Positions 15,213 through 28,031 of a stretch of DNA of 30,000 nt are shown one piece after another (positions within the stretch are counted from its first letter, which is position 1; each line of letters opens with the position of its first letter). This DNA comes from Prodigiosinella aquatilis (GTDB taxonomy: Bacteria > Pseudomonadota > Gammaproteobacteria > Enterobacterales > Enterobacteriaceae). The position numbers were made by a program, and so were the translations under genes. Where the stretch lies: positions 3,049,621 to 3,079,620 of the forward strand of contig CP128857.1 of the NCBI GenBank assembly GCA_030388725.1, read 5' to 3'. The notes under the pieces are model-generated. The model was not told where the DNA came from, did not search any database, and was given only the letters and a program-made list of their open reading frames with translations.

Positions 15213-16481
15213 TTATAAATGCAGTGGTTTTCTGTCTTCTTTTCTTATTATAAAAAAGCGCTCTCCCAACCGCACATCATTAGCTGGTATATTGAATATT
15301 TTATAGTAACGAACAAAAACAATTATCGCGGTGATAAAGGCTAATATAGCGAATGCGACATCCAGTAATATAATGTAATTCAATCCGATTTCTGATAAAT
15401 ACCCAGTAATCAGTGGAATAAGGAAGTTTGACAACCCGCCCATCAACATATAGAGGCTCGTCACCCTGGCCTTACTTTTTGGGAAGAATTCGGACATGAC
15501 GGAAACGCCGAGTTGCAGCAACCCACCGGCGGCGGAGAAACCAATGATGAAGGAACCAACATTACAGACGAGCGATGATGGATACAGATAGATCACGATA
15601 CCGGCAGCTACGGCTAATCCAGAATTGAACACATTAGCCCAAACGGGACGGACCATTCTTTTTAACAGCAAGGCAAAAACGAACACGCACACTAACGAGC
15701 CTATACTGTAGTAAGAGATTGTTTTCAATGCGTCAGCTTCTGCCATACCCGCATAGGCCATTGCATATTTGGGCATCCAGACAACAATCACATAAAACGT
15801 TGAGAATATGGCGACACCAAACACAATTGAGGCGACCCCTTCAAGCCATGCCAGCGGCTTTTGGTTCATCTGTGGCAAGTCTTTGGTAATATTGGCGTCA
15901 ACCAGCTGGCTGGGGAACTTACTCTTAAGCAGTAGTAACGTGACAAAGATAAATAGAATACCTGGGATGATGATACCGTAGCCATACCAAATATGATTCA
16001 CCAGTAAATAACCGACTAATAACGGATAGAACATCTGACCGAAAGAGACCATAGCTTTGATCAGAATGACCGCAGAACCGGATGTTTTGGGGTAACATTC
16101 CATTAATGCCGGGTATGCACCGGTATCCAATGCCGCATTCGCTACACCGACACAGACGGCCAGAATAAATGCAATGATCAAGTTAGGGCTGGCGGGAATA
16201 CCGAAGAAGAACACGATATATAAGATGACACCCAGCAGGATCACGAAACGTCTACCAAACTTGTCAGATATTACGCCGAAGAATAGGATACTGATCAGTC
16301 GACCCAATCCTATACCTGAAATCAGGTAGGCAATACCGGCATTATCGGTGCCAAACTTTGTGGCCAAAGGAGTCATATTCTGTGCCAAGGTAATGACACT
16401 GACGCCATGAAGAAAATAGCTCAGATATATACCTATGACAGCTAATAAAAATGGCGCATTGAAGGCCTTATTCTGGCTCAT
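15213..16481 (-). CDS. ydiN: MFS transporter (12-TM), YdiN-like
   Basis: 422 aa and hydrophobic throughout, with the MFS loop 2-3 motif GVISDKFGRR. A GGAGAA SD is present. It is syntenic with ydiN next to ydiB. Confidence 0.82.
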   Translation of the reverse strand: MSQNKAFNAPFLLAVIGIYLSYFLHGVSVITLAQNMTPLATKFGTDNAGIAYLISGIGLGRLISILFFGVISDKFGRRFVILLGVILYIVFFFGIPASPNLIIAFILAVCVGVANAALDTGAYPALMECYPKTSGSAVILIKAMVSFGQMFYPLLVGYLLVNHIWYGYGIIIPGILFIFVTLLLLKSKFPSQLVDANITKDLPQMNQKPLAWLEGVASIVFGVAIFSTFYVIVVWMPKYAMAYAGMAEADALKTISYYSIGSLVCVFVFALLLKRMVRPVWANVFNSGLAVAAGIVIYLYPSSLVCNVGSFIIGFSAAGGLLQLGVSVMSEFFPKSKARVTSLYMLMGGLSNFLIPLITGYLSEIGLNYIILLDVAFAILAFITAIIVFVRYYKIFNIPANDVRLGERFFIIRKEDRKPLHL

Positions 16482-17226
16482 TCTTTTCTCCGTTTATAGT
16501 TAATGTTTTTATTACTCATTTCCTGATGTCTTACTTCACATTTTTGTTCTTTATTTTTACTGACTTCATATATTTTATAAAATTCCACCAAATTAATATT
16601 CGTAGTTAATGTATAAAACAAAGGTAACAATTAATACGTAATATAAGGTTTTTATTGTCAATTTTATTGCACGCAGTCAAGGAAGGGAGTGCCGATCTTT
16701 GTTGAGGATTTGTTTGTTATTTTACAAAAAATAACACATTATACAGATGAAATACCATCTCGTGACACACCAGCATAATAAATAAATACTGAGAGATGGA
16801 TCAAATTTATTTTTTGTTCCCGAGTAAATAACATAAGTTTTTTTGTAAAATAGGCTAAGCAGGGGGAAAAATAACATTTTCAATGTAAACGAATAAGCAT
16901 CAGGCTGCATCTTTTAACTAACCGTGACACCCGATAGTAGACGATACTTACCTTTTTCATGTTTATGACAATTATCAATTAACAACTTAGCTACGTTTCT
17001 TCCCGGCATAAAGTGACAAGAGAACATGTTATATTGCATCACACCATAATAATTTTGCACACCGCGACAAGATAGTATGGTTTTTACTGCGATACTCATT
17101 GACTCCATGTAAGTAGGCCCACACGACATAATGTGATTTAATCAGCGACATCTTCCTCTCGCTTGCAGTATGTTGATATTGTCGGGCCACAAAAATACAC
17201 GCTTCACTAACTTCATGAGATGTAGA

Positions 17227-23914: not shown

Positions 23915-24264
23915 GAATCAGCCTTCGCTTTTTGTTGCCATTGCTTCCATTTCTCACTGTTCTCCTGAAGTTTCTCCGCAATCTCAACAGCCCGTTTGTT
24001 GGCAGAACGGCGATAGCGTTCGTTTTGGATATAGTGAATTTTTTCCAGAAGTAACGTTTCCATTACGGTGGCAAATGCAGGCGCATCGGGTGCTGAAATC
24101 CTGATTTCTCCAGTACTGGTCAGGATGCAGAATCCCGCCATCATGTCTGGTACAAGAGTGCATAGCGCGTGTCCAAGAACTTCCGGGCTATCCATGTAAA
24201 GGCTTTCCTGCGGTTCCCGTTCTCTTACTGGTGGTGTCAGATGTGAAGCGACCATGTTATTCAT
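23911..24264 (-). CDS. Hypothetical early protein (117 aa)
   Basis: Track ORF. It overlaps the transposase start by 4 nt and the upstream gene by 8 nt. Confidence 0.5.
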   Translation of the reverse strand: MNNMVASHLTPPVREREPQESLYMDSPEVLGHALCTLVPDMMAGFCILTSTGEIRISAPDAPAFATVMETLLLEKIHYIQNERYRRSANKRAVEIAEKLQENSEKWKQWQQKAKADS

Positions 24265-25186
24265 CCTCTTCCTGTGCTTCTTTCACCCAGTCCGGCATGC
24301 CGTCAATCTCGCGGAAGTCAGGCAGGTCAAACTGTTGACGCATGTCGACGACACGGGCTTCGATATCATCAAGCAACCCTGCCATAATGTGGGTGTGGCT
24401 GATGCCGGTACGTTCTGCGTGTTCGGCCAGTGCCTCAAAGCCGCATTTGAGGTTGATAAGAGCGCTGAGTACACCGCTTTTAAAACCAGTGGCTTCCGTT
24501 TCAAGCGCCTGACCTTCTTCATCGGGCGTCTCTGTTGTAGCGCGGCGCGTCAGCCTGGCCTTCAGCTCGTCAGTCTGGTCTTTGAGGGCGTTGATCTCAT
24601 CTTTCTTTTCGGCCAGCGTCTGGCGGCTGATTTCGAGGTCGGTTTTGAGGTCTTCTTTCTCTTTGGTGTGCTTGGCGATCATTTCTTCGGCCAGCTCCAG
24701 CAGGGCCGTTTTGTCGCCTTCTTTGGCCACTTCAATGAGGGCGCTTTTCTGGTCGTCCGGCAGGCGGCGGAACTGGCGCAGTTCGCGATAACCAATCCCC
24801 ATGCGGGACATGGAATCCAGGGCTTCTTCACCGAAGGCGGTAAGGTTGGCAATATCCAAATCTGCCTTATCAACGGATATTCCGAGAACATTACAAAACT
24901 CATCCCATGTGCCCGAAAACTCCGAACCGTTCGGTGTCTTCTTGCCCTTTAGATTGCGATATAGCTTGTTTTCTTTAACAAATGCCAGTTTAGAAGTCCG
25001 AACCGTTCGGGAAAATTGCTCAAATGCATCAGCCATCTGTGCCTGACCAAGAAGCTGATTCAGCAGATCACGTTCATCACTGAGTTGGCTGGTAACTGTC
25101 GCCATCAGATTTTGAGTGGCCTCCAGTTTGGGATTCAACTCCACGTCGGGTGCAAGTTCAGCAGGTTGTGATTTTGTGCGAGCCAT
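24257..25186 (-). CDS. Coiled-coil early protein (309 aa), unknown function
   Basis: An AAGGAG SD is present. The central heptad-rich segment is KEKEDLKTDLEISRQTLAEKKDEINALKDQTDELKARL, and the C-terminus is acidic. Confidence 0.6.
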   Translation of the reverse strand: MARTKSQPAELAPDVELNPKLEATQNLMATVTSQLSDERDLLNQLLGQAQMADAFEQFSRTVRTSKLAFVKENKLYRNLKGKKTPNGSEFSGTWDEFCNVLGISVDKADLDIANLTAFGEEALDSMSRMGIGYRELRQFRRLPDDQKSALIEVAKEGDKTALLELAEEMIAKHTKEKEDLKTDLEISRQTLAEKKDEINALKDQTDELKARLTRRATTETPDEEGQALETEATGFKSGVLSALINLKCGFEALAEHAERTGISHTHIMAGLLDDIEARVVDMRQQFDLPDFREIDGMPDWVKEAQEEDE

Positions 25187-25195
25187 TGTTACTCC

Positions 25196-25501
25196 TTAGC
25201 GGCTACCAGCCAGTACGCGCTGGTTAAGTTCGTCGATGCGCCCCTGTGCGCGGGACATTTCATTGTTATGGGCCATGGCAATCTGCAAAAGCTGTACACC
25301 TGGAGCAAAACGCCCGTTTTCAAGCTTGAGTGCCAGCCCCTCTTCGATAAGGGTATTGAGTGCCCGATTGATATTTGCCGGGGATTCACCCAGAGCCGAT
25401 GCCAGTTCACCGTTAGATACCCCATTAAGGGCGTGACCACGCAGTGCTTTAAGAACACGCAGAATGCGGGAGCCAGAACTGGATACATTTGCCTTACTCA
25501 T
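25196..25501 (-). CDS. Winged-HTH DNA-binding protein (IclR-N-like HTH)
   Basis: The start at 25501 (MSKANVSSSGSRILRVLKALRGHALNGVSNGELASALGESPANINRALNTLIEEGL...) has an AGGGGAA SD, giving 101 aa. Confidence 0.6.
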   Translation of the reverse strand: MSKANVSSSGSRILRVLKALRGHALNGVSNGELASALGESPANINRALNTLIEEGLALKLENGRFAPGVQLLQIAMAHNNEMSRAQGRIDELNQRVLAGSR

Positions 25502-25555
25502 GTCACATTCCCCTTTTTGCAATATGTGATAACCTTTTACGAAGACTTAAAATCA

Positions 25556-25744
25556 TCAGGCGGCCCGAGCTGTTGATTTAAGTCCCAGCTTCACGGCAAT
25601 TTCATGAGATTTACCGTAACGAGCTTTCGTCTGACCGTTGAGAACCCGGTAGACCTCGTAGCGGCTGTAGCCGTTTTCTTCTGCCCACTGGGTGAATGTG
25701 ATCCCTCGTTGGCGGAAGAGCGTTTTGACTTGATCTGCAGTCAT
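25556..25744 (-). CDS. Small HTH protein, Ner/Cro analogue (BcepMu gp16-like); first gene of the early operon
   Basis: 62 aa: MTADQVKTLFRQRGITFTQWAEENGYSRYEVYRVLNGQTKARYGKSHEIAVKLGLK. An AAGGAGA SD is present. It is divergent from the repressor across an operator-rich 81-bp spacer. Confidence 0.7.
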   Translation of the reverse strand: MTADQVKTLFRQRGITFTQWAEENGYSRYEVYRVLNGQTKARYGKSHEIAVKLGLKSTARAA

Positions 25745-25791
25745 CGTTGTCTCCTTGGTTGATACAACTATGTTTGTACTATGTGTGTTAG

Positions 25792-25820
25792 ATTATTGTC
25801 TAAAAAATTAGACAGAGCAA
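25792..25820 (-). promoter_or_regulatory. Candidate early promoter with the operator palindrome in its spacer
   Basis: On the minus strand: TTGCTC (25820-25815), a 17-nt spacer, then AATAAT (25797-25792). The spacer is exactly the palindrome TGTCTAA-AAAA-TTAGACA (25797-25814, plus-strand reading), and a third half-site TTAGA lies at 25788-25792. Confidence 0.45.
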
Positions 25821-25825
25821 GGTGT

Positions 25826-26191
25826 ATGTCCATTATTTTAGAAGAACTTCACGATCGTCTAGTTGAGGAATTAAAACGCGTCGGCCCTCAAACTGTTGCT
25901 AAGTTAACGGGCATATCTCGTGCGACGATTTACAACTGGATGGAAAAGGGCAATACGCCCTTAGATAAATTGGCTCTTTTGGATGCAGCGGGCATAGATG
26001 TTACTTACATACTTACTGGTCAGTGTGCTCCAGGGTCTATTGTAGAGAGACCTTCCTTAACAACCCGGCAGGCGGCGTTGTTGGATAACTATGAGCACTT
26101 AAATGATTCAGACAAAAAGGCTTTAGAGCGTACAGCCTTTGCGTTGGCGGAACAGGGAAAGGTGAGCAAAAAAACGAAAACAGCATCATGA
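25826..26191 (+). CDS. CI-type phage repressor (HTH), immunity repressor candidate
   Basis: The start is taken at 25826 (MSIILEELHDRL...). The HTH is VAKLTGISRATIYNWMEKGNTPLDKLALLDAAGIDVTYILTG, which resembles the phage CI-repressor HTH family. It is divergent from the early operon. Confidence 0.75.
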   Translation: MSIILEELHDRLVEELKRVGPQTVAKLTGISRATIYNWMEKGNTPLDKLALLDAAGIDVTYILTGQCAPGSIVERPSLTTRQAALLDNYEHLNDSDKKALERTAFALAEQGKVSKKTKTAS

Positions 26192-26248
26192 TATGCTCTG
26201 AATCTTTAATGCAGAATAAGCTGGATGTATAAGAAAAAGGAGACCAAC

Positions 26249-26821
26249 ATGGCGGGTATTCAGGTTATTGCAGGAAATTTCCCCAAGGGATGGGCAAGTT
26301 TTGGCTTTGGCACTATTGTCTTCGGTAAAAAACCTAAACAAGGCTTCCCTGATGCTATTGTGCTGAACCCGAAGGAAGAGCTGCTATCAATTGAAATTGC
26401 AGGCAGTGAGGTGGAAAGCCGCATAGGTAAGGCCGCAGGCACAGGTATTCTTGGTGGGCTAATATTTGGTGGCGCGGGTTTGGTCATTGGAGGCTTGCTT
26501 GGCGCAGCAGATAAGATAAAGAAGACCATAACATTTAAAGCGGCATTCACGGGAAATAGGCATCTTCTAGCTAAAACGGATGCAAAAACCTTTGTAAAGC
26601 TGCAGTCAATCGCTTTCGATAACGCAAATAATTTGCCTGTAACCGATAAGGTCCAGGTTCAAAATTTGGATGCTCCAGCTGAAAATCCATCGACTAAAGA
26701 ACCAGATTTATCCCCTTCTGTTACTGTAGCCAAGATGACATCTAAAGATAAGCTTGAGCTTGCGGTTGGCTTGGTCGTCATCACCTTAGTTGTCTGGGCA
26801 GTGATTCACTTCTTTTTTTAG
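26249..26821 (+). CDS. Two-TM glycine-zipper membrane protein, unknown function (190 aa)
   Basis: An AAGGAG SD lies 6 nt before the ATG at 26249. The central segment is GTGILGGLIFGGAGLVIGGLLGAA and the C-terminal TM is LELAVGLVVITLVVWAVIHFFF. It starts 57 bp after the repressor stop, with no intervening terminator that I can see. Confidence 0.7.
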   Translation: MAGIQVIAGNFPKGWASFGFGTIVFGKKPKQGFPDAIVLNPKEELLSIEIAGSEVESRIGKAAGTGILGGLIFGGAGLVIGGLLGAADKIKKTITFKAAFTGNRHLLAKTDAKTFVKLQSIAFDNANNLPVTDKVQVQNLDAPAENPSTKEPDLSPSVTVAKMTSKDKLELAVGLVVITLVVWAVIHFFF

Positions 26822-26919
26822 GAAAGTGCTTAAAAACACTTCCAGTTCTAATAGAAGTAAGGGCGATTTAAACCCGCGCTTGAGTATCATTTTTTACGCA
26901 TTAACGGTGTCACTGCTCA

Positions 26920-27195
26920 TCAACAACAGGAGCCTGATAGCAAGTTCGCATGGCTATTGGGATTGGCGCTGATGGTCAGTCTTATTTCTCCAATGAGTAT
27001 TCCTTTCAGCTTATTTTCAGGGAGCATTCGTGGCGTTTTCTCCACCTGCTCAAGCGCGGCCTGCATCTCTCTTATTGCCTCTGCCAGATTGTCGGCATTG
27101 ACGCTAAGTGTGTAGATTTTTGCTGCAGTTTCATACTCATCGCAGGTTATTCCCATTAAGTATGAGTGTTTGGGTTTATTAGTTGCTGAACTCAT
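26920..27195 (-). CDS. Small protein S1 (91 aa), paralogue of 28806..29063
   Basis: MSSATNKPKHSYLMGITCDEYETAAKIYTLSVNADNLAEAIREMQAALEQVEKTPRMLPENKLKGILIGEIRLTISANPNSHANLLSGSCC. It starts 12 nt after the methyltransferase stop. The core is near-identical to S2. Confidence 0.65.
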   Translation of the reverse strand: MSSATNKPKHSYLMGITCDEYETAAKIYTLSVNADNLAEAIREMQAALEQVEKTPRMLPENKLKGILIGEIRLTISANPNSHANLLSGSCC

Positions 27196-27207
27196 GTGTT
27201 TCTCCTT

Positions 27208-27972
27208 TCAGAAATTGCATATCACAAGTTCCTGGCGCGGTGATGACTTACCCGACAGGCTGTAGTTGATGCAAACGGTCTGGATGTTGAGGCCTTTGAA
27301 AGCCTGCCTCATCTCTGGGATATCGTTCACCGATATAATCATTTTCCCTTTGATACTCCGCGCCAGTTCCGACATGTGGATATAGTTCCCTATTGGAAAA
27401 TCCACGCCATAGCCCTCTGTTCCCCAGTACGGTGGATCACAGTAGAACAGCGTATGCGGGCGATCATAACGCTCTATGCACTGGTGCCAGTCCAGATGCT
27501 CTATCAGCGTTCTGGACAGGCGCAGGTGTGCCATCGACAGTTCTTCTTCGATGCGCAGGAGGTTAAAGCGCGGCGCACTTGTGGTGGAAGTTCCGAACGT
27601 GTGATCGGCGACCTTGCCTCCAAACGCCTGTTTCTGAAGGTAGTAGAACCGGGCCGCACGCTGTATATCAGTCAGTGTTTCTTCTGGCGTATCCTGCAAC
27701 CATTTGTAGATCTGGCGACTCACCAGCGCCCATTTAAACTGCCGGACAAACTCTTCCAGATGGTGTTTCACTACCCGGTATAAGTTCACGAGTTCCCCAT
27801 TGATATCGTTGATTACTTCGGTCTTGCTGGGGGTCTTGAGAAAATACAGAGCAGCTGCACCGCTGAATGGCTCTACATAACAGGTATGAGCTGGGAAAAG
27901 CGGCAAAATATGTTTGGCCAGACGGCGTTTACCGCCGATCCATGGAACGATGGGCAAAGATTGTTCTTTCAT
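27208..27972 (-). CDS. DNA N6-adenine methyltransferase, Dam (D12-class) family; no cognate endonuclease nearby
   Basis: 254 aa. Motifs are PWIGGKRRLAKHI, the AdoMet-binding motif YVEPFSGAAALYF and the catalytic DPPY (FYCDPPYWGTEGYG). Confidence 0.85.
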   Translation of the reverse strand: MKEQSLPIVPWIGGKRRLAKHILPLFPAHTCYVEPFSGAAALYFLKTPSKTEVINDINGELVNLYRVVKHHLEEFVRQFKWALVSRQIYKWLQDTPEETLTDIQRAARFYYLQKQAFGGKVADHTFGTSTTSAPRFNLLRIEEELSMAHLRLSRTLIEHLDWHQCIERYDRPHTLFYCDPPYWGTEGYGVDFPIGNYIHMSELARSIKGKMIISVNDIPEMRQAFKGLNIQTVCINYSLSGKSSPRQELVICNF

Positions 27973-28019
27973 TATCCGTAAGCCTTTTACAGTCAGTGAA
28001 AATATGGCAGGCTAGTCCG

Positions 28020-28031
28020 GTCTCGCGAGAC
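28020..28031. other. Perfect 12-bp palindrome GTCTCGCGAGAC in the methyltransferase upstream region
   Basis: Read directly from the sequence. It is nested within an outer inverted pair, CAGTCAG (27990-27996) and CTGACTG (28031-28037). Confidence 0.5.

Follow-up and report, generated by a model that had tools for sequence, protein, structure and literature searches.

A predicted glycine-zipper membrane protein encoded directly downstream of the repressor gene in a BcepMu-like prophage of Prodigiosinella aquatilis

The stretch of DNA analysed here, referred to as the window (30,000 nucleotides of Prodigiosinella aquatilis, contig CP128857.1, positions 3,049,621 to 3,079,620), carries a gene for a 190-aa protein with a conserved glycine zipper on its + strand (26249..26821; stop codon TAG, 26819-26821), which we call the zipper gene. 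It follows a repressor-type helix-turn-helix (HTH) gene (25826..26191, +, 121 aa) in what its sequence indicates to be a BcepMu-like transposable prophage. An earlier note on this DNA had described the 190-aa open reading frame (ORF), a strong Shine–Dalgarno (SD) sequence and a 57-bp distance from the repressor stop codon on the same strand, and all of these descriptions held: the HTH gene ends at 26191, the intergenic gap occupies 26192..26248, and an AAGGAG motif lies at 26237-26242, 6 nt before the ATG. A competing in-frame ATG at 26225 lies upstream of the SD sequence, and the N-termini of near and distant homologues (MAGIQV, MAAVDIL, MAKIKV) all begin at the equivalent of 26249, which argues for 26249 as the start. 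The exact protein is deposited as WP_290179666.1.

The gap contains no recognizable transcription signal that would separate the zipper gene from the repressor gene. Neither of two terminator scans found a hairpin followed by a T-run in it (a tool scan of 25400-27300 and a laxer scan of 26101-26300, in which a hairpin of ≤ -4 kcal/mol followed by ≥5 T in 9 was accepted), folding of 26150-26290 was unremarkable (z -1.0) and no Rfam match was returned for 24000-30000, in agreement with the earlier note, which had seen neither hairpin nor U-tract. A tool scan predicted no promoter in the gap, and the best sigma-70-like match in 26000-26260 reached 8/12.

The zipper gene is real, far beyond chance, with homologues at E values of 1e-110 and an end-to-end match to phrog_12025 (aa 1-190 on profile positions 1-193 of 193, E value 2.6e-102). 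This match came from the kind of profile search that the earlier note had proposed, and phrog_12025 is an uncharacterised family; a 95 %-identical homologue (P0001) and other close homologues additionally carry a precomputed assignment to Pfam PF27000 (PF27000.1). Profile searching of 1.84 billion representative proteins retrieved 441 proteins at E ≤ 1e-3, of which 59 also passed E ≤ 1e-10; each of the 441 represents a cluster at 50 % identity. In IMG/VR, family members occur on at least 161 viral contigs. The 90 % cluster of the zipper protein itself comprises 56 member sequences. Members at least 90 % identical to it occur on hundreds of contigs (415, 179 and 46 for the best represented) from Enterobacter, Citrobacter, E. 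coli, Serratia and Cronobacter, all annotated as ‘hypothetical protein’, and Salmonella was seen only for the cluster of the adjacent repressor. No functional name was found in the annotations of homologues, nor did we find a paper mentioning PF27000; the family is thus catalogued (phrog_12025, PF27000) but unstudied. The whole locus was present in 1 of 5426 complete E. coli genomes and in a single species-representative genome, which is the pattern of a sporadic prophage gene, and neither megablast of the locus nor tblastn of the zipper protein, of its relative P0025 and of the family consensus matched any of 50,697 phage isolate records. Overall, the family is strongly biased towards phages and mobile elements, with integrase and recombinase neighbours, and some members lie in chromosomal, non-phage contexts. 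Weak IMG/VR matches between tail-chaperone and tape-measure genes, which cover only aa 46-117 at 35-40 % identity, were not counted as secure members.

The protein was modelled with AlphaFold2 (AF2) over aa 1-135 from an alignment of 89 family sequences, giving a mean predicted local distance difference test score (pLDDT) of 76.4 and a predicted template modelling score (pTM) of 0.61; an alignment of 10 close homologues alone gave a pLDDT of 37. Strand blocks scored 86-92 and the hairpin described below ~50. The model comprises strands 2-9, 14-19, 22-25, 37-39 and 45-55, helices 59-72 and 74-86, strands 92-100 and 104-111 and a helix at 112-127. Five strands (aa 1-57, 26249..26419, pLDDT 86-90) are predicted to form the first half of a beta-sandwich resembling a pleckstrin homology (PH) domain, a fold defined by seven antiparallel strands in a sandwich and a capping alpha-helix at the C-terminus, with aa 88-127 (26510..26629) supplying the remaining two strands and a C-terminal helix as cap; the latter stretch is the most conserved in the family (KKTITFKA...R.LLA.TD.KTF.KLQ). 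Between the fifth and sixth strands, the model inserts a helical hairpin (aa 59-87, 26423..26509) made of two ~12-residue helices around a GG turn, which is GP in most of the family. A poorly conserved low-complexity linker (aa 128-167, 26630..26749) then leads to a predicted C-terminal tail-anchor transmembrane (TM) helix (aa 168-190, 26750..26818, ending VVWAVIHFFF) preceded by a Lys-rich KMTSKDK. Foldseek searches of the PDB returned no significant match (best E value 0.09), the list consisting mostly of PH and phosphotyrosine-binding (PTB) domains (Sin1, Dok2, BTK, DAPP1, SSRP1/Pob3), while the best viral match was an uncharacterised Pantoea phage protein (E value 3e-3).

This architecture revises the one in the earlier note in part. 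The glycine zipper and the C-terminal anchor that it described were both recovered, with 19-residue Kyte-Doolittle peaks of 2.01 for the glycine-rich apolar segment (aa 62-87) and 2.61 for aa 168-190, and its linker was likewise retained. The separate N-terminal domain and the ~40-aa loop did not survive, since the AF2 model joins both in one beta-sandwich, and the zipper, which had been described as a GxxxG-rich helix between these two parts, is modelled as an inserted helix-turn-helix hairpin. Across the 89 sequences, the apolar run of the hairpin has a median length of 28 residues, G74 is invariant (89/89) and is followed by Pro in 70/89 and by Gly in the clade of the zipper protein; G64, G66, G69, G77, G81 and G85 are each 85-99 % conserved. 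The segment thereby carries two glycine-zipper motifs, G66xxxG70xxxG74 and G77xxxG81xxxG85, whose glycines are 85-100 % conserved. Both flanks of the hairpin are rich in Lys/Arg. Because its arms are only ~12 residues long, its flanks are Lys/Arg-rich and both of its ends must rejoin neighbouring strands, the segment should, according to the model, stay on the cytoplasmic side as a hairpin, re-entrant or between subunits, and not span the membrane, and all soluble parts are predicted to be cytoplasmic. In three copies (P0008, P0009 and P0011), the zipper has lost 11 or 16 residues in frame, or the reading frame shifts immediately behind it; slippage on GGN-rich repeats, loss-of-function alleles or assembly errors could account for these lesions.

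Most of the 441 representatives are 116-126 aa long and cover only profile positions 1-123, and the core of the family is therefore the sandwich plus hairpin, with the tail as an add-on. What follows the core varies between members: nothing, a TM anchor, a SHOCT domain, a SHOCT domain plus an anchor ending in HHFF (P0016) or longer extensions with tRNA_anti-like or DUF6030 domains.

The position behind a repressor gene recurs well beyond the window. Among 13 IMG/VR loci of the close family, we identified three arrangements: the window type, with 95 % identical copies (repressor, 57 bp, zipper gene); an E. coli/Morganella type at 72 % identity (153-aa HTH gene, overlapping 328-aa gp18-like gene, 85-90 bp, zipper gene, convergent gene); and a Burkholderia type at 56 % identity with a SHOCT tail (L015: 152-aa HTH gene, 325-aa gp18-like gene, 16 bp, zipper gene, 55 bp, holin gene). 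A distant Mu-like prophage (L018), whose zipper protein and transposase are 37 and 32 % identical to those of the window, has a 141-aa HTH gene, 12 bp, the zipper gene, a GH108 endolysin gene and a holin gene. Four BcepMu-like lineages (95, 72, 56 and 37 % identity) consequently share the order repressor, optional gp18-like gene and zipper gene on one strand. The HTH proteins of the E. coli/Morganella, Burkholderia and L018 types are homologous to BcepMu gp17, a cI/cro-type repressor that has been named the lysogenic repressor of that phage (PMC2628397), and a 33 %-identical non-phage copy begins 2 bp after an HTH_3/Peptidase_S24 (LexA/CI-type) repressor gene. Being on the repressor's strand and immediately behind it, with no terminator or promoter between the two genes, the zipper gene of the window is placed like an accessory gene of the immunity region, a placement kept in four lineages.

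Among 69 IMG/VR loci, the upstream gene was co-oriented in 55, lying within 100 bp in 43 of these 55, and the downstream gene was convergent in 40. HTH_3 was detected in 10/50 and Peptidase_S24 in 7/50 of the co-oriented upstream proteins, a set that includes four proteins added from other loci; other IMG/VR neighbours included antirepressor, Mor, GemA, Arc, integrase, AbiEii and PIN genes. Repressor adjacency is frequent, not universal. At one further locus (L020/L021, 5001-8613), a 117-aa member lies between a divergent dGTPase-like HD/HD_assoc gene and a co-oriented gene for a 1057-aa DEAD/ResIII helicase, which may represent a defence-island context.

Since the gap holds neither a terminator nor a good promoter and the gene order recurs across lineages, we favour co-transcription of the zipper gene with the repressor gene, with which the sequence of the locus is consistent.

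The slot between the repressor and the lysis genes has different occupants in related phages: a gene for a 312-aa lipoprotein-like protein in E. coli GON1437, gp18-gp20 in BcepMu and two uncharacterised genes (gp11-gp12) in KS10 (PMC2628397). In the window, the G+C content (GC) of the repressor and zipper genes is 0.43-0.45, against 0.50-0.62 for the phage core genes. Cassette DNA homology between the window and the E. coli/Morganella type (L008, 5925-6000) begins ~65 nt before the ATG, with a 22-nt indel in the leader, so that the ~65-nt leader (the gap plus the last ~25 nt of the repressor gene) is homologous to that of the 72 %-identical cassette. Since the homology extends ~25 nt into the 3' end of the window repressor gene, the repressor may have received its C-terminal codons and stop codon with the cassette. 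The gp18-like proteins (260-328 aa; coiled coil and C-terminal TM segment) form a further family, whose genes are translationally coupled to the repressor gene in several relatives (L002, 3045-3983; L008, 4924-5910; L015, 5007-5984; L016, 5640-6422). The L002 occupant starts with a lipoprotein-like signal and has only its C-terminal part in common with the L008 protein. Pfam gave no support for BcepMu gp19 being a SLATT-type two-TM effector.

Our preferred reading, which we put forward tentatively and hold at somewhat short of an even chance, is that the zipper gene is an accessory (moron-type) gene of the immunity region, made in lysogens, whose product would form a membrane-embedded oligomer that protects against incoming phages. 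Read from the repressor transcript, the gene would supply the protein to lysogens. The PH-like sandwich would face the cytoplasm and carry the hairpin in the loop between its fifth and sixth strands; as neither arm is long enough to span the bilayer, the hairpin would either reach into the cytoplasmic leaflet or interlock several subunits, while the flexible linker and the C-terminal tail anchor would hold the domain at the inner membrane. SHOCT-like domains have been suggested to tether intracellular domains to the inner leaflet (PMC11237479), and because TM anchor and SHOCT interchange as tails in this family, a sub-membrane location fits. The membrane oligomer might then block DNA entry at the inner membrane in the manner of SieA or Imm or, once infection is sensed, permeabilise or depolarise the membrane in the manner of RexB. 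An exclusion or abortive-infection role, as the earlier note had suggested, is plausible by analogy, and the location of the gene in a variable accessory slot of the immunity region, together with the occurrence of the family in lysogeny modules, speaks for it.

Several observations weigh against this reading. Repressor-like upstream neighbours make up only about one-fifth of those in IMG/VR, other copies lying among tail genes or elsewhere, and these figures are plain neighbour counts. The ~65-nt leader travels with the cassette, which makes an unrecognised promoter of its own possible. The PH assignment rests on a predicted model for which no Foldseek E value was better than 0.09, the hairpin is the part modelled with a pLDDT of ~50, and hhalign of the family profile against one bPH_2 protein returned a probability of 0.4 %. 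The zipper protein and its relatives had no match in a copy of Pfam without PF27000, nor was there a match in NCBIfam; the zipper protein and seven relatives likewise matched none of the 5027 models of PADLOC-DB v2, which covers systems up to 2023. The literature on PH-like or glycine-zipper prophage proteins yielded no characterised member of the family. More specific searches were also negative: no match at E ≤ 0.01 to the bacterial PH families bPH_1 to bPH_6 in Pfam for the zipper protein and ten relatives, none at E ≤ 0.01 to the Pfam glycine-zipper families (Gly-zipper_Omp, Gly-zipper_OmpA, YMGG, 2TM and Rick_17kDa_Anti), and, in a profile search of PDB sequences, only non-significant compositional matches to the hydrophobic tongue of ClyA and the tail of Fis1 (E value no better than 0.12).

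In phage lambda, rexA and rexB come straight after the repressor gene, share its strand and are expressed in lysogens. The zipper gene resembles rexAB in this position and strand; however, Rex consists of two genes with a multi-pass RexB, whereas the system described here is a single gene predicted to encode a tail-anchored protein with a PH-like domain and a short hairpin, and we found neither a sequence or fold relation to Rex nor a PADLOC match. Rex acts at the inner membrane against other phages (PMC11436027). The mechanism most comparable to the one proposed is that of P22 SieA, an inner-membrane protein that is made by the prophage and is enough on its own to block DNA injection (PMC10883804), although the zipper protein has no detectable homology to SieA and differs in architecture, and SieA is not repressor-linked. 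The genes BcepMu gp18-gp20 and KS10 gp11-gp12 share genome position, strand and phage group with the zipper gene (PMC2628397), but are unrelated to it in sequence (no tblastn match in the 50,697 phage records); a gp18-like gene precedes the zipper gene in two lineages. In bacterial PH proteins of the bPH_2 type (YdbS/YdbT), a helical hairpin attaches a PH-like sandwich of small size to the membrane, an arrangement akin to the one predicted here; SHOCT is a known C-terminal partner of bPH_2 (PMC3581485), and PHb domains form oligomeric rings (PMC2817789). In contrast to the bPH proteins, the predicted hairpin of the zipper protein lies inside the domain instead of preceding it and has ~12-residue arms instead of full TM helices. 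Finally, D3112 gp05 and DMS3 Aqs1 of Pseudomonas transposable phages are small accessory proteins that exclude superinfecting phages (PMC11436027); the zipper protein is likewise a small accessory protein of a Mu-like temperate phage, but gp05 and Aqs1 are soluble inhibitors of PilB (the pilus ATPase), share no homology with it and act in a different host and receptor biology.

Among the other explanations considered, the one that survives best, although we regard it as unlikely, is that the zipper gene is an autonomous moron, whatever its function, expressed independently of the repressor transcript from a weak or activator-dependent promoter of its own in the ~65-nt leader. The homologous cassette does include this leader and with it the hexamer TTTAAT (26205-26210); the E. 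coli/Morganella type has another gene, gp18-like, 85-90 bp ahead of the zipper gene, and many IMG/VR copies do not lie behind a repressor. However, TTTAAT is not accompanied by a -35 element, the best promoter match around the gap is the 8/12 site reported above, and the gaps at other loci (2, 12 and 16 bp) are too short for a promoter that does not overlap the upstream gene.

We consider it rather improbable that the protein is a lysogenic-conversion factor acting on the host envelope by analogy with the PH-domain membrane proteins of bacteria, one that has nothing to do with phage exclusion and confers, for example, tolerance to envelope stress or to membrane-active bacteriocins. A PH-like fold beside a membrane hairpin and SHOCT tails like those of envelope-stress-linked proteins (PMC11237479; PMC3581485) would suit such a role, as would the members in chromosomal, non-phage contexts; against it stand the lack of sequence membership in any bPH family and the strong phage and mobile-element bias, with at least 161 IMG/VR contigs and integrase and recombinase neighbours.

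Marginally less probable again is a part in the lysogeny switch itself, in which the protein would be a membrane-tethered partner or sensor of the repressor, sequestering it or coupling induction to the state of the envelope. Linkage to CI/gp17-type or S24 repressors is kept down to 33-37 % identity, including at one non-phage locus, and the window repressor lacks the S24 autocleavage domain (Pfam scan), so induction must use another route. Most IMG/VR members are, however, not adjacent to a repressor, and the close relatives E. coli GON1437, PhiKM and BcepMu have no zipper gene, which speaks for an accessory gene and not for a core component of the switch.

The least probable explanation, which we doubt strongly, is a protein expressed late with the lysis cassette, whether as holin, as antiholin or as a regulator of lysis: pinholins contain glycine zippers, the L015 copy lies 55 bp upstream of a holin gene on the same strand and the L018 copy is followed by GH108 endolysin and holin genes, but these are the only two loci where the gene belongs to a lysis cassette, convergent genes lie between the zipper gene and the holin-like gene both in the E. 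coli/Morganella type and in the window (there the 91-aa and Dam genes, with the DUF2441 cassette as a further insertion before the holin-like gene at 29243), endolysin appears in only 1/57 IMG/VR downstream neighbours with no holin family seen, the non-phage copy lies behind an S24 repressor, and the repressor gene abuts the lysis cassette anyway in BcepMu-like genomes.

Returning to the phage-protection reading, genes that ride on the repressor transcript are a classic source of prophage protection (Rex, Sie), and here the family is large, as the cluster and contig counts above show, with no studied member. The result is of moderate interest: immunity regions are expected to hold genes of this class, whereas we found its architecture and the breadth of its family described nowhere in the literature and databases searched. 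The revised architecture offers a concrete, testable model with a minimal form of ~118 aa. If phage exclusion is its role, the zipper gene would add a new protein architecture to prophage protection and provide an annotation for hundreds of hypothetical proteins; if it has no effect on phages, the conserved repressor linkage would still need explaining. A more far-reaching proposal, which we offer as speculation with perhaps one chance in a few of being right, is that the PH-like domain with its glycine-zipper hairpin defines a widespread uncharacterised class of phage membrane effectors coupled to CI/LexA-type repressors. The ~118-aa minimal form would assemble as a ring, and an infection signal on the PH-like face would insert the hairpins, gating or breaching the inner membrane or plugging DNA entry, which would constitute a new single-protein immunity mechanism residing in the immunity regions of numerous temperate phages.

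The surrounding sequence is in keeping with the assignment to a BcepMu-like element. Positions 1 to ~16500 of the window are host DNA (LysR, acyl-CoA and electron transfer flavoprotein genes, aroD and a major facilitator superfamily (MFS) transporter gene), and the transposable prophage extends rightwards from ~17000. GC falls to 0.34-0.35 at 16200-17200, where the host MFS gene (16481-15213) gives way to the first phage-side ORFs, and this dip probably marks one prophage end; the opposite end is located beyond the window. The DDE transposase (23914-22121) shares 62 % identity with its counterparts in Escherichia phage PhiKM and Klebsiella phage KP12, and 52 % with BcepMu gp09. As in BcepMu, a leftward early operon (ner-like gene, IclR-type HTH gene, two uncharacterised genes, transposase gene and ExeA/MuB-like gene) is paired with a rightward repressor gene, and the lysis and late genes lie further right, including the holin-like gene at 29243, whose product is 53 % identical to a Burkholderia homologue. 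The repressor gene holds the position of BcepMu gp17; its product matches PF07022 (Phage_CI_repr, E value 1.3e-6), shows weak similarity to the gp17-type repressors of related prophages and has the same annotated start in E. coli AF22.

The 81-bp divergent control region between the ner-like (-) and repressor (+) genes (25745..25825) contains operator-like repeats, namely tandem 11-mers ACTATGTTTGT and ACTATGTGTGT at 25767-25788 and a perfect palindrome, TGTCTAA-N4-TTAGACA, at 25797-25814, which we regard as operator candidates from their sequence. The best promoter-like site on the + strand is TTGTCT-16-TATGTT (25747-25774).

Downstream, no canonical + strand terminator was found after the zipper gene. 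Between the convergent zipper and 91-aa genes, a weak terminator-like double hairpin with TTTTT behind it on the - strand (26837..26875) is the probable end of the Dam/91-aa transcript. This transcript would cover the 91-aa gene (27195-26920, -), which is convergent to the zipper gene, and a Dam-type methylase gene (27972-27208, -); a DUF2441 gene (28071-28790) and an 85-aa gene (29063-28806, -), a paralogue of the 91-aa gene, lie beyond. The two paralogues form a 203-nt direct repeat (26954-27156 and 28822-29024, 88 % identity) that brackets the Dam and DUF2441 genes, and a second repeat of 53 nt is present at 28075-28127 and 29097-29149. The relative in E. coli AF22 carries only the 91-aa gene and Dam before the holin gene, which suggests that the DUF2441 and 85-aa genes were acquired as an additional cassette through recombination at the repeat. 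In that relative (L001, 7706-8470), Dam is annotated as a pseudogene with an internal stop codon and the zipper gene is intact.

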